IMG/VR virus record: IMGVR_UViG_640753023_000006
DNA: 34,631 nt
Strand: one strand, 5' to 3'
Origin: a virus
Taxonomy: Duplodnaviria > Heunggongvirae > Uroviricota > Caudoviricetes
Part shown: piece by piece, positions 1 to 34,631 of the stretch
Layout: every line of letters starts with the position of its first letter
Numbering within the stretch: position 1 is the stretch's first letter
The notes under the pieces: generated by a model
What the model was told of the DNA's origin: nothing
The model's input: the letters and a program-made list of their open reading frames with translations, nothing else
The model's database searches: none
Made by a program: the position numbers and the translations under genes

Positions 1-996
1 TTATGGACGCATTATGGACATTCCTGACACCGGGTTAAGAGTCACAGCATCTTGTAAGAAATCCGGTGCAAAGTGTGCGTAGGTCATAGTTTGCTGAATG
101 TTAGAATGACCCAGGATGCGCTGCAATGTGATTATGTTACCTCCATTCATTATAAAATGTGTGGCAAATGTATGCCTCAAAACATGCACTGCCTGTCCGT
201 CAGGTAAATCGGGTTTTACTTCCCTGAGAGCGTTGCGCACTTTGTAGTAACTGGCATTAAAAAGCCTGCCTGAGTTTTTGGTCTTGATCCGTTTAATCAG
301 GTCCTGCGAAACGGGAATTGTCCTGCGCTTTCCGTTTTTAGTTTTCATAAACGTAACCATCTGGTTAATGATGTGTTCAGCTTTTAAATTAGACACTTCA
401 CTCCAGCGTCCACCAGTAGAAAGGCAGACCAGAGTCGCATTTAATTCATCACCATCGAGCATGGATAACAGCCGTGTAATCTCTTCACTGGACAAAAAAG
501 CCATTTCTGTAACAGCTTCACGTAATCGCTTAACCTCACGGAACGGGTTGTGAGAATGGTATTCACCGGCGTCAATTAACTTGGTGAACATCCCGCTCAT
601 TATTGCCAGATGCCGATTTACGCTGGCTGGTTTTAGACCATCGTTCATCATTACAACGCGATAATCAGTTATCGTTTTCTTTGTTAGCTGGTCAGCTCTG
701 GACACTCCCATTTCTGCAAATTTGGCGATTATTGTCGTCAAACGCCCCCGTTCAATACCTCCACGCTCATGTGATTTTCCGTGATATATCCACCATCTGC
801 CTAACAACTCTGTAAGAGTTCGGCGGTCGGCTGGCTTCTCCAGCCACTCTTTGTTGTGGTAGTTAACCAGTACATGACGTTCGAATGCTTGAGCTTCACC
901 TTTAGTTTTAAATTTCCGCCTGATACGTTTTCCATCTGCACCCTGCGGTCTGACGTCCACTTCATAACGACCATCATCGAGCTTTTTAATAGACAT
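1..996 (-). CDS. int: P2-type tyrosine integrase
   Basis: 331-aa ORF with ATG at 994-996 (MSIKKLDDGRYEVDV...) and a C-terminal catalytic region HVLRHTFATHF...LGHSNIQQTMTYAH typical of tyrosine recombinases. Position at the prophage end next to the repressor matches P2. Confidence 0.93.
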   Translation of the reverse strand: MSIKKLDDGRYEVDVRPQGADGKRIRRKFKTKGEAQAFERHVLVNYHNKEWLEKPADRRTLTELLGRWWIYHGKSHERGGIERGRLTTIIAKFAEMGVSRADQLTKKTITDYRVVMMNDGLKPASVNRHLAIMSGMFTKLIDAGEYHSHNPFREVKRLREAVTEMAFLSSEEITRLLSMLDGDELNATLVCLSTGGRWSEVSNLKAEHIINQMVTFMKTKNGKRRTIPVSQDLIKRIKTKNSGRLFNASYYKVRNALREVKPDLPDGQAVHVLRHTFATHFIMNGGNIITLQRILGHSNIQQTMTYAHFAPDFLQDAVTLNPVSGMSIMRP

Positions 997-1089
997 AAAG
1001 CCCTCCGATGACGCTGTTTACTTCTACTACTTGAAAATTAATGCAATTTTCTTTCGTACATTTACTGCACACATATGCTGAATAAATCG

Positions 1090-1401
1090 TCAGCCAGTCT
1101 TTTGGTCTGAGTGGTGCAAGGTTGTTGAGTCTTGCCCAATGTGCGCGAGCGCCGGGGCTATTTGTCCGCCAGCGGGATCAGTTTCATCAAACATGAACCA
1201 GTCACGGTACTTGCGAAATCTTTCTGGCTTGAAAAATTTCATGCCTGCGTCAAAAGACATCTTTACTTTTCCCTGCTCATATCCAGCATAGGTGTTGTAG
1301 TTAATTCCAGTTAATTCAGCAACTTGCTTCCTTGTCATTCTTTCTGACTCCCGAATAAGTGCGAGTTTCTCTGCTTGAGATGTGATTTGTGTATTTGACA
1401 T
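1090..1401 (-). CDS. C: immunity repressor, P2 C-like
   Basis: ATG at 1399-1401 gives the 103-aa product MSNTQITSQAEKLALIRESERMTRKQVAELTGINYNTYAGYEQGK with an HTH and a C-terminal ...QIAPALAHIGQ...QKTG tail as I recall for P2 C. The ORF-track start at 1449 is a TTG extension. Divergent from cox. Confidence 0.8.
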   Translation of the reverse strand: MSNTQITSQAEKLALIRESERMTRKQVAELTGINYNTYAGYEQGKVKMSFDAGMKFFKPERFRKYRDWFMFDETDPAGGQIAPALAHIGQDSTTLHHSDQKTG

Positions 1402-1423
1402 GAATTGTCGTATCTCGTAATTT
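1395..1423 (+). promoter_or_regulatory. candidate sigma70 early promoter (Pe-like) reading toward cox
   Basis: TTGACA at 1395-1400, 17-bp spacer, TAATTT at 1418-1423, sitting in the C/cox divergent switch region. A weak direct repeat GTTGnATGnnAC occurs at 1426-1437 and 1475-1486 (possible operator half-sites). Confidence 0.4.
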
Positions 1424-1505
1424 ATGTTGCATGCGACACGCCAGAACAACGCAGAGCGGCTTCAAATAGCTCTGGTTGAATGGCACCAAAGTTGAGGATA
1501 TCAAA

Positions 1506-1862
1506 ATGAGTATTGGATCAAAAATGAATAACGATGTTGGAGAAAAAGTATCTGATCTCACAAAAAGTAAAAAATGTGACATCAAACTTGCAGCCGCACC
1601 GTCGGATTTGCTCTCGAAAGAGGGATTTGCTCTTTACATCGGTAAGACGCCTCGTGCTGTTGCTGAAATGGCGAAAGCAGGCAAGTTACCAGCCTTTTAT
1701 ATGACGGACCCATTAAAGCCGGGCGGTCATGCTGAGTTATGGATTAATCGCCGTGAGTGGGACAAGTACGCAGCCCAACTAGTTGATGAAGCTCCGACAG
1801 AATGGCATGACTGGAAAAATCGCATTAGTTACAGCAAATCAAGACATGGCCGTGCGGCTTAA
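1506..1862 (+). CDS. cox: Cox-like excisionase / early regulator
   Basis: ATG at 1506 preceded by GAGG at 1493-1496 (9-nt spacing). Product contains YIGKTPRAVAEMAKAGKLPAFYMTDP, a Cox/excisionase-like HTH. First gene of the rightward early operon, as in P2. Start is uncertain (the ORF track begins with TTG at 1476). Confidence 0.7.
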   Translation: MSIGSKMNNDVGEKVSDLTKSKKCDIKLAAAPSDLLSKEGFALYIGKTPRAVAEMAKAGKLPAFYMTDPLKPGGHAELWINRREWDKYAAQLVDEAPTEWHDWKNRISYSKSRHGRAA

Positions 1863-32674: not shown

Positions 32675-32688
32675 GGAGGTGACGAAAA

Positions 32689-33168
32689 ATGATGCTCGCG
32701 TTAGGTATGTTTGTTTTTATGCGCCAGACGCTGCCACACCAGACCATGCAGCGTGAATCAGATTATCGCTGGCCGTCAAATTCCCGTATCGGCAAACGGG
32801 ATGCCTTTCAATTTCTCGGTGTGGGTGAGGAAAACATCACGCTTGCCGGTGTGCTTTATCCCGAACTGACCGGCGGAAAGCTGACGATGACCACGCTCAG
32901 GCTGATGGCTGAGGAAGGCCGGGCGTGGCCGTTGCTGGATGGCACTGGCATGATTTACGGCATGTATGTTATCAGCAGGGTGAGTGAAACAGGGAGTATT
33001 TTCTTTGCAGACGGCACACCCCGGAAAATTGATTTTACGCTGTCGCTCACCCGCGTTGATGAATCACTGGCCGCGCTGTATGGCGATATCGGTAAACAGG
33101 CGGAATCGCTCATCGGTAAGGCTGGCAGTATGGCGACCAGATTCACGGGGATGACGGGGGCGGGATAA
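32689..33168 (+). CDS. U: tail protein (P2 gpU)
   Basis: 159-aa product MMLALGMFVFMRQTLPHQTMQRESDYRWPSNSRIGKRDAFQFLGVGEENITLAGV... Confidence 0.9.
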   Translation: MMLALGMFVFMRQTLPHQTMQRESDYRWPSNSRIGKRDAFQFLGVGEENITLAGVLYPELTGGKLTMTTLRLMAEEGRAWPLLDGTGMIYGMYVISRVSETGSIFFADGTPRKIDFTLSLTRVDESLAALYGDIGKQAESLIGKAGSMATRFTGMTGAG

Positions 33169-34331
33169 TGTTGGATGCGCTGACATTTGATGCAGGCAGT
33201 ACGCTGACGCCGGATTACATGCTGATGCTCGACAGCAGGGATATTACCGGCAATATCAGCGACCGTCTGATGAGCATGACCCTGACGGATAACCGGGGCT
33301 TTGAGGCTGACCAGCTTGATATTGAACTGAACGATGCCGACGGGCAGGTCGGGCTGCCGGTTCGTGGCGCTGTCCTGACGGTGTATATCGGCTGGAAAGG
33401 TTTTGCCCTGGTATGCAAAGGGAAATTCACCGTTGATGAGGTTGAACACCGGGGCGCGCCGGATGTGGTCACCATCCGCGCCCGGAGTGCAGATTTTCGC
33501 GGGACGCTCAATTCCCGCCGTGAAGGCTCCTGGCATGACACCACGCTCGGTGCGATTGTTGAGGCGATAGCCTCCCGTAACAGGCTGGAAGCCAGAGTCG
33601 CTCCGTCACTGGCCGGAATAAAAATTCCGCACATCGACCAGTCGCAGGAGTCTGATGCGAAATTCCTGACTCGTCTTGCAGAGCGCAACGGCGGTGAGGT
33701 GTCGTTAAAAATGGGAAAACTGTTGTTTCTCAAAGCGGGGCAGGGGGTGACGGCAAGCGGTAAAAAAATCCCGCAGATTACCATCACCCGCAGCGACGGC
33801 GACCGTCATCATTTTGCGATTGCTGACCGTGGAGCCTATACCGGCGTAACGGCAAAGTGGCTTCACACCAAAGACCCGAAGCCGCAAAAGCAGAAGGTAA
33901 AACTGAAACGCAAAAAGAAAGAAAAACACCTGCGCGCACTGGAGCACCCGAAAGCGAAACCGGTCACGCAGAAGAAAGCGCCTAAAGTACCGGAAGCGCG
34001 CGAAGGTGAATACATGGCCGGTGAGGCTGACAACGTTTTTGCACTGACCACGGTATATGCCACGAAAGCGCAGGCCATGCGCGCCGCTCAGGCGAAGTGG
34101 GACAAACTGCAACGGGGCGTCGCGGAGTTTTCCATCAGCCTGGCTACCGGTCGGGCAGATATTTACACGGAAACACCGGTTAAAGTGTCAGGCTTTAAGC
34201 GCGTCATAGACGAGCAGGACTGGACAATCACTAAGGTGACACATTTTCTGAATAATAGCGGCTTCACGACGTCCTTGGAGCTTGAGGTCAGGCTTTCTGA
34301 TGTGGAGTACGAAACAGAAGATGATGAGTGA
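33168..34331 (+). CDS. D: late control / tail protein D (P2 gpD)
   Basis: 387-aa product MLDALTFDAGSTLTPDYMLMLDSRDITGNISDRLMSMTLTDNRGFEADQLDIELNDADG...; start overlaps the U stop (TAATG). Confidence 0.9.
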   Translation: MLDALTFDAGSTLTPDYMLMLDSRDITGNISDRLMSMTLTDNRGFEADQLDIELNDADGQVGLPVRGAVLTVYIGWKGFALVCKGKFTVDEVEHRGAPDVVTIRARSADFRGTLNSRREGSWHDTTLGAIVEAIASRNRLEARVAPSLAGIKIPHIDQSQESDAKFLTRLAERNGGEVSLKMGKLLFLKAGQGVTASGKKIPQITITRSDGDRHHFAIADRGAYTGVTAKWLHTKDPKPQKQKVKLKRKKKEKHLRALEHPKAKPVTQKKAPKVPEAREGEYMAGEADNVFALTTVYATKAQAMRAAQAKWDKLQRGVAEFSISLATGRADIYTETPVKVSGFKRVIDEQDWTITKVTHFLNNSGFTTSLELEVRLSDVEYETEDDE

Positions 34332-34412
34332 TGTTTTTATTTTATCTGTTTGTTTTATAAGGGTAATTTAACTAAAATGGCACCATCAACAAAACCGGAA
34401 GAGGTGCTCGCG

Positions 34413-34631
34413 ATGTTTCATTGTCCTTTATGCCAGCATGCCGCACATGCGCGTACAAGCCGCTATATCACTGACACGACAAAAGAGCGTTATCACCAGT
34501 GTCAGAACGTGAATTGCAGCGCCACGTTCATAACTTATGAGTCGGTACAGCGATACATCGTGAAGCCGGGAGAAGTCCACGCCGTAAGGCCGCACCCGTT
34601 GCCGTCAGGGCAGCAAATTATGTGGATGTAA
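34413..34631 (+). CDS. ogr: Ogr zinc-finger late-gene transcription activator
   Basis: ATG at 34413; 72-aa product MFHCPLCQHAAHARTSRYITDTTKERYHQCQNVNCSATFITYESVQRYIVKPGEVHAVRPHPLPSGQQIMWM with the CxxC...CxxxxC zinc finger; matches P2 Ogr as I recall it. The ORF-track 5' extension from 34350 is not the real start. Confidence 0.9.
   Translation: MFHCPLCQHAAHARTSRYITDTTKERYHQCQNVNCSATFITYESVQRYIVKPGEVHAVRPHPLPSGQQIMWM

Follow-up and report, generated by a model that had tools for sequence, protein, structure and literature searches.

An apparently recent ISEc12 insertion in the sheath gene of a P2-type prophage of Escherichia coli APEC O1 that probably still recombines with its relatives

Does a P2-like prophage with a broken tail sheath gene persist in its host as a carrier of useful accessory genes, or is it a phage that has only just died? 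This question is raised by IMG/VR record IMGVR_UViG_640753023_000006, a stretch of 34,631 nucleotides (hereafter the window) in which the sheath gene FI is split by an insertion sequence (IS). The window corresponds to approximately 919802–954432 of CP000468.1 (GCA_000014845.1) from the avian pathogenic Escherichia coli (APEC) strain APEC O1, with an exact match of the 138-amino acid open reading frame (ORF) that runs from FI into the IS, and is a Peduovirus (P2-type) prophage of this strain inserted at the start codon of pflA. A first-pass annotation, made from the sequence alone, had proposed that the element is tail-defective and may persist as a carrier of two cargo genes. The element type is well known, IS disruption is an ordinary way for a prophage to die, and an IS-disrupted prophage in a genome that has been public since 2007 is routine by itself; a literature search for a P2-like prophage of APEC O1 retrieved no specific description. 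We consider it likely (probability about 0.78) that the element is a freshly dead, undecayed P2-type prophage that still recombines with incoming relatives and is not maintained for its cargo.

A tblastn search of the window with 42 P2 proteins showed FI to be the only P2 backbone protein that did not align over its full length. It was found in two pieces, with amino acids 1–122 at 25442–25807 and amino acids 117–396 at 28377–29216. A copy of ISEc12 (IS21 family; 2582 bp; 25806–28387, + strand) with TG...CA ends and rve, Mu-transpos_C_2 and IstB_IS21 domains splits the gene within codon 122. The copy is flanked by a 5-bp target duplication (CCTGC; 25801–25805 and 28388–28392), and in-silico removal of the IS together with one duplicate restored an open FI of 396 amino acids with 98% identity to P2 FI, in agreement with the earlier reading of FI as split by an IS. 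As placed by tblastn, the 5′ fragment (25442–25858, +; Gp18_domIII_N domain) comprises 122 FI residues followed by 16 IS-encoded residues and a stop, and the 3′ fragment (28388–29219, +; Phage_sheath_1 and Phage_sheath_1C domains) holds residues approximately 121–396. An in-frame ATG in the right end of ISEc12 (28353) opens an ORF of 288 amino acids reaching to 29219, made up of 12 IS-encoded residues and FI residues 121–396, which could be translated if transcription exits ISEc12.

The break in FI was shown to be real by the same junction-spanning ORFs in independent assemblies. The left-junction ORF, letter-for-letter as in CP000468.1, is also present on a contig of GCA_902880315.1 (hereafter the sister), and the right-junction ORF on another contig of the sister and on a Logan contig of SRR7524170. 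Carriers of the junction amounted to only 2–3 assemblies in a collection of 15 billion proteins, and a 240-bp left-junction probe gave a contiguous match in 0 of 5426 complete RefSeq E. coli genomes. The prophages of APEC O1 and the sister showed 0 mismatches over 12.4 kb of late-region flanks and the 10 kb of chromosome next to them on the pflA side differed at no more than one position, from which the two hosts were concluded to be close relatives. No second lesion was found in the prophage backbone with the 42 P2 proteins. Since the junction was absent from all 5426 genomes, the flanks of its carriers are identical and nothing else has decayed, the insertion in FI looks recent.

The Logan contig of SRR7524170 (L018) has the same right junction, an intact IstA of 513 amino acids and unrelated sequence left of the IS (1–512), and its FII differs from that of the window at 4 positions. 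This left flank stems either from mis-joining of the assembly graph at the IS repeat or from a genuine IS-mediated rearrangement by which the left part of the prophage was lost, and the contig was counted as support for the right junction only. A comparison with uninterrupted relatives, as proposed in the first-pass annotation, found fun(Z) together with an intact FI in 12 complete genomes, but was not decisive for the ancestral arrangement, the best uninterrupted fun(Z)–FI match being only 98.5% identical. Disruption by IS elements is frequent in P2-like prophages. The sequence type (ST) 95 relatives IHE3034 and GPEC1446 were found to have prophages of another mosaic composition at the pflA site, bearing other IS insertions, namely IS1A in the early operon in IHE3034 and ISEc12 in gene H of GPEC1446.

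The shared junction makes it possible to order other events against the loss of the sheath. A patch at 20406–25397, from the 3′ end of I through H, G and fun(Z) to 44 bp before the start of FI, was 100.000% identical to canonical P2 (NC_001895; 0 mismatches in 4992 bp); its neighbours were 2–3% diverged from P2, with 59 mismatches in the 400 bp just before it. In the sister, contig L006 was 100% identical to the window at 13946–20410 and 25362–25882 (into the IS), and contig L017 was 100% identical at 28311–34207. Between 20410 and 25362 the sister contains another module, with a longer I, a 413-amino acid fibre, invertible tail-fibre-assembly genes and a resolvase, and no fun(Z) was found in this module. 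A three-way alignment showed gene I of the window (19983–20513) to be a hybrid, of the sister type in its 5′ part and of the P2 type in its 3′ part, and placed the crossovers at 20406–20410 and 25362–25397, coinciding with the limits of the divergence from the sister. The hybrid nature of I suggests that it was APEC O1 that received the P2 block, and an exchange in either direction needs recombination in a prophage that already carried FI::ISEc12. Because the sister has the same FI::ISEc12 junction and a different fibre/Z module, the exchange of the fibre/fun(Z) block most probably took place after the sheath gene was broken. Most economically, ISEc12 would have been inserted once, in a common ancestor, and the fibre/Z module would later have been replaced in one of the descendants.

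A similar event may have affected the early region. Window positions 1873 to approximately 11700 (orf78 to P, including an RloC-like gene) showed approximately 7 mismatches to a P2-like prophage (L015) at the yegR/trhP site of an O1:K1:H7 APEC strain, the remainder of which was 2–3% diverged from the window. The pflA-side contig of the sister (L009) was identical to the window only to approximately 1500, was 2% diverged thereafter and contains DprA-type cargo instead; a DprA-type defence system has been validated (PMC9122126). This evidence is suggestive of a second swap, of the early/tin-old module with the RloC-like gene, and no more than suggestive because the linkage of L009 to the junction contig is unproven. 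The portal protein, present in 2082 blocks of the assembly collection, was too widespread to trace the sister contig CADILS010000076.1. We tentatively propose, at somewhat less than even odds, that the sheath-less prophage later took up H, G and fun(Z) as a P2-identical block, and probably also the early/tin-old RloC module. The prophage is a recombinational mosaic, in which a block of approximately 5 kb is identical to P2 and the orf78–P block is nearly identical to that of the yegR-site prophage of related O1:K1:H7 strains. Whether defective P2/P4 elements still swap defences was explicitly left open in a recent study (bioRxiv 10.64898/2026.02.27.708500).

A single recent transposition of ISEc12 into codon 122 of FI would be expected to inactivate tail assembly. 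Infectious contractile-tailed virions are predicted to be lost, and this is a sound inference, as the first-pass annotation had argued, because FI is the only sheath gene in the window and is split. The subunits of gpFI are joined in the sheath lattice by strands from both the N- and C-termini (bioRxiv 10.64898/2026.09.14.750843). Since both termini are needed, an N-terminal stub of 122 residues and a separate C-terminal piece of 276 residues would be unable to build this lattice. In the P2 annotation, FI is the first gene of the F operon (FI-FII-E-E′-T-U-D), and with 2.6 kb inserted at the head of this late operon, transcribed from pF, polarity on FII–D is likely; expression of the tube, tape-measure and other tail genes would probably be lowered. 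A scan for promoters and terminators around the IS gave counts at chance level and was uninformative on polarity. The functions for excision, replication, packaging and lysis look intact, and lysogeny would be kept as well; derepression would be expected to result in cell lysis and death with, at most, DNA-filled tail-less heads. Mitomycin C, which had been suggested for inducing the prophage, is poorly suited to testing it, because P2 is classically non-inducible (Bertani & Bertani 1970, as cited in PMC5009727), the repressor of the APEC O1 prophage is P2-C-like and no LexA box was found in its control region, the search of the window giving a single hit at chance level inside istB.

Two low-GC cargo genes (28–35% GC) were found intact in the tin/old and Z/fun hotspots, as first annotated, and the lysogen would be expected to express both as conversion genes. 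The gene in the tin/old hotspot (6131–8347, − strand; 28–34% GC) encodes an ABC-ATPase of 738 amino acids (AAA_13, E=2e-111). Its top PADLOC family was the candidate PDC-S06 (E=1e-254), the PrrC model matched its C-terminal third (residues 490–730), and distant full-length homologues with 25–33% identity are named "wobble nucleotide-excising tRNase"; no NCBIfam family and no hit in a sequence search of PDB were obtained. The ABC-ATPase motifs are a Walker A (GQNGCGKS, 30–37), a signature (LSEGE, 499–503) and a Walker B (FIVIDD, 531–536), with CPFC at 254–257 midway in an insert of approximately 460 residues between Walker A and the signature, and a C-terminal triad of the form R646-NIL-E650-x39-S689-H690. 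The signature of RloC consists of Arg-X3-Glu-X36-52-His, often with Ser before the His, together with a zinc-hook CxxC (Davidov & Kaufmann 2008; PMC2610378). Based on the match of these motifs, the protein is predicted to be an RloC-like anticodon nuclease acting in abortive infection. It shares with RloC and PrrC the ABC-ATPase motifs, and has the CxxC in a long insert and the R-x3-E-x36-52-H arrangement, but differs from RloC (PMC2610378) in being encoded by a single gene in a phage hotspot that is not linked to a restriction-modification system, and no curated family names it RloC, a name borne by distant homologues.

The RloC-like gene is widespread. The assembly collection contains its exact protein sequence in 1760 blocks, and in 41 complete E. 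coli genomes a locus with at least 98.5% identity occupies the same hotspot; APEC E16002 contains the cargo in a prophage at another att site. In databases this widespread protein is named only "AAA family ATPase" or candidate PDC-S06. The second cargo gene, fun(Z) (23465–25051, −), encodes a P-loop ATPase of 528 amino acids of the Sll1717 family (NF047389, E=1e-61). It is identical to that of P2 over 528 of 528 amino acids and on DNA level, and has the same locus (between G and FI) and strand; the P2 annotation states "cloned gene blocks growth of T5", and in the lysogen Fun(Z) might act in exclusion of T5 as in P2. The hotspots of P2 are established reservoirs of rapidly swapped defence systems (Rousset et al. 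2022, PMC9122126; bioRxiv 10.64898/2026.02.27.708500). The hotspot analysed in those studies is tin/old (A–cos), and in APEC O1 cargo is present both there and at Z/fun. Identical cargo in prophages with different core alleles and att sites fits the rapid swapping that they report.

With both cargo genes intact beside a broken structural gene, a domesticated element might be envisaged, in which the host keeps the grounded prophage for the protection given by the RloC-like and fun(Z) genes, loss of the tail being tolerated or favoured and no productive induction taking place. P2 hotspots are known reservoirs of defence genes (PMC9122126), conservation of defence genes in defective P2-like elements has been described (bioRxiv 10.64898/2026.02.27.708500) and the broken prophage is common to at least two isolates of one lineage. 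Although this is the alternative that survives best, we consider it improbable. The junction was found in none of the 5426 complete genomes and the flanks of its carriers do not differ along more than 12 kb, which leaves no time for selection to become visible, and the other phage genes, including those for lysis, are intact, so that the element is still potentially lethal. The same RloC-like cargo was found to be split by ISEc12 or IS1 in other P2-like prophages, and an intact prophage would carry the cargo equally well. Domestication would be recognised by an old and widespread lesion and by decayed phage functions alongside conserved useful genes; what was found is one lesion in 2–3 assemblies. 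Apart from the intact cargo, the proposal that the prophage persists as a cargo carrier thus gained no support from a lesion that is young and rare in a phage that is otherwise undecayed.

Less probable still is that the prophage is effectively viable and gives rise to particles at low frequency, with FI supplied in trans from a second P2-like prophage, by marker rescue from a relative, or after precise loss of the IS. Marker rescue is made plausible by the mosaic patches, which show recombination with relatives, and many E. coli genomes contain more than one P2-like element, with up to 4 FI-containing places per genome. However, no second P2-like element was shown in APEC O1, in which a single copy of the RloC-like protein was found. 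For complementation to succeed, polarity on FII–D would need to be overcome as well, and the genome packaged into a trans-complemented particle would still be the broken one. Precise loss of an IS between repeats of 5 bp is a rare event. Finally, a misassembly of repeats that placed the IS in FI could be imagined for a multi-copy element such as ISEc12 (thousands of places in E. coli), L018 joining the right junction to an unrelated left flank, but such an artefact, which the first-pass annotation had named as grounds for abandoning its reading, is next to impossible in view of the perfect 5-bp duplication, the exact restoration of FI without the IS and the identical left and right junction ORFs in independent assemblies with 100% identical flanks.

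Several points nevertheless weigh against a freshly dead prophage that still takes part in recombination. The tail defect, the polarity and the expression of the cargo are all inferred. A second P2-like prophage might supply FI (and FII–D) in trans, the RloC-like protein being the only one that was checked as single-copy. For the order of events, two separate insertions of ISEc12 at one and the same nucleotide, or the transfer of an IS-bearing segment, are alternatives to a common ancestor; the sister is a fragmented short-read assembly, and the swap after the insertion depends on this one assembly. The expected lengths suggest that contigs L009 and L006 possibly do not abut. The frameshift in istA described below could be a sequencing error of the 2007 assembly.

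The name ISEc12 was taken from the RefSeq annotation of near-identical copies, in which IstA and IstB are likewise named ISEc12, and the copy in FI contains terminal and subterminal inverted repeats of the IS21 type (repeats I1, I2 and I7). It differs from a RefSeq-annotated copy by a single inserted base, an extra G (GG to GGG) at 26991–26993 that breaks istA (25999–27541, +) into ORFs of 398 and 182 amino acids, intact IstA having 513; istB is located at 27553–28302 (+). Either this copy is non-autonomous or the 2007 sequence contains a single-base error. ISEc12 was found at approximately 16 distinct positions within approximately 2 kb of FI in 33 complete E. coli genomes, and under random insertion, roughly estimated, only a few positions would be expected. 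Its sites in P2-like prophages include the 5′ end of FI, other FI sites (E302 and KE54), the 3′ end of FII, gene H, the Z hotspot and the RloC-like cargo. This recurrence may be due to a regional preference or simply to insertions being tolerated in prophages. That the shared junction results from strict specificity of ISEc12 for its target site was rejected, since other insertions in or near FI were at many positions.

The ISEc12 insertion described in tssM of E. coli ST131 clade C is likewise flanked by a 5-bp duplication (PMC10711316), which reads ACTGC instead of the CCTGC found here. In both cases a single insertion inactivates a gene of a contractile machine and the junction sequences are traceable, but the tssM insertion is fixed in approximately 99.8% of a large clade (PMC10711316), whereas the FI insertion was found in only 2–3 assemblies and in no complete RefSeq genome. 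The two duplications resemble each other, and from these two cases alone a weak preference for NCTGC as target may be suspected.

Outside FI, the prophage was shown to be very similar to P2 (Peduovirus P2; NC_001895/AF063097), which was the top match among phage records (97.7–97.9% identity by megablast). By blastn, four collinear blocks were obtained: P2 1–9369 with window 8663–18033, P2 10308–18017 with 18098–25807, P2 18013–24254 with 28390–34631, and P2 26277–30295 with 1859–5877, the last of these corresponding to the early operon (97.3%). DNA identity was 97–98% across approximately 27 kb outside int-C-cox, and gene order and content were the same from cos to ogr and from orf78 to A. In the tblastn search, full-length and gap-free matches in prophage order were obtained for orf78, B, orf80–83, A, Q, P, O, N, M, L, X, Y and K, and likewise for lysA/B/C, R, S, V, W, J, I, H, G, Fun(Z), FII, E, T, U, D and ogr; for the A protein, 754 of 761 amino acids were aligned to P2 A. 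The description of a P2 backbone in canonical order, with FI as its sole disrupted gene, thus holds. No match in the window was obtained by tblastn with P2 orf30, orf91, tin and old; where P2 carries tin/old, the APEC O1 prophage has the RloC-like gene. The third variable locus of P2, between S and V (orf30 in P2), is empty, with 64 bp (18034–18097) between the P2-homologous blocks.

The early replication operon (orf78, B, orf80–83 and A; 1873–5907, +; A at 3616–5907) showed 89–100% amino acid identity to P2 and includes the position of the P2 ori nick site. The 19-nt cohesive end of P2, GGCGAGGCGGGGAAAGCAC, was found as an exact match at 8663–8681 (+), where cos had been annotated. It is followed at 8851–18031 by Q and P (−) and O, N, M, L, X, Y, K, lysA, lysB, lysC, R and S (+), for head formation, packaging, lysis and tail completion (full-length; 91–100% amino acid identity), and at 18098–23064 (+) by the baseplate and fibre genes V, W, J, I, H and G, all full-length. 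Downstream of FI, the genes FII, E/E′, T, U, D and ogr (29232–34631, +; ogr at 34413–34631) were full-length with 98–100% amino acid identity. The H, G, Fun(Z), FII, U and Ogr proteins and the E/E′ slippery site are identical to those of P2. An Rfam scan of the whole window detected no family above threshold.

The prophage differs from P2 in its immunity and integration module. The int, C and cox genes are intact heterologous alleles with 53, 47 and 35% amino acid identity to P2, respectively, and their products are the same as proteins annotated in other genomes. The integrase (331 amino acids; 1–996, −) contains Phage_integrase domains, and the same int was found beside pflA in 388 of the 5426 complete E. 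coli genomes. The C repressor is encoded at 1090–1401 (−; gene call) and Cox, with a Phage_Cox domain, at 1506–1862 (+); proteins of equal length are annotated at the same position in IHE3034 and GPEC1446. P2 has att sites of its own, whereas the APEC O1 prophage is located between pflB and pflA, and the int-pflA/ogr-pflB arrangement was also found in IHE3034 and GPEC1446.

The window begins and ends with the stop codons of int and ogr, and the att sites were found approximately 100 bp beyond both ends, so that "complete", as the element had first been called, applies to its genes but not to its ends. The first-pass annotation had suggested that attL and attR be sought outside the window, and a 13-bp direct repeat (ACCAATAACTGAC) was detected in CP000468.1 at 103 bp from the left end of the window and 112 bp from its right end, overlapping the start of pflA. 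This repeat pair is taken from its sequence to be the att sites, a chance 13-mer within about 500 × 600 bp being unlikely. The att core overlaps the start codon of pflA, and with the prophage integrated, the 5′ end of pflA is supplied by the phage (MSNLTNCNTIENTAAAGATK joined to SVIGRIH...), giving a protein of 265 amino acids; the native protein presumably has 246. The gene lies 31 bp downstream of int in the same orientation, and its native upstream region is now 34 kb away at attR. Expression of pflA may therefore rely on the C-int transcript of the prophage reading through into the gene.

These results have practical consequences for the annotation of extraintestinal pathogenic E. coli and APEC of ST95, in which an intact-looking P2 prophage such as this should not be scored as inducible or as a helper of P4. 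The RloC-like and Fun(Z) genes are candidate phage-resistance determinants and as such relevant to phage therapy against APEC. More generally, the shared IS junction serves as a time-stamp against which exchanges of modules can be ordered, the fibre/fun(Z) block differing between its carriers. The elements described in earlier studies (PMC9122126; bioRxiv 10.64898/2026.02.27.708500) were mostly intact, whereas the swap in APEC O1 can be ordered against a datable lesion. This bears on whether grounded prophages are dead ends or still belong to the "guns for hire" traffic in defence genes, and, if the reading given here is true, APEC O1 would provide a concrete and datable example for the question left open (bioRxiv 10.64898/2026.02.27.708500). 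Prophages that no longer yield virions would then remain active in recombination, acquiring defence cargo from phages that enter the cell.

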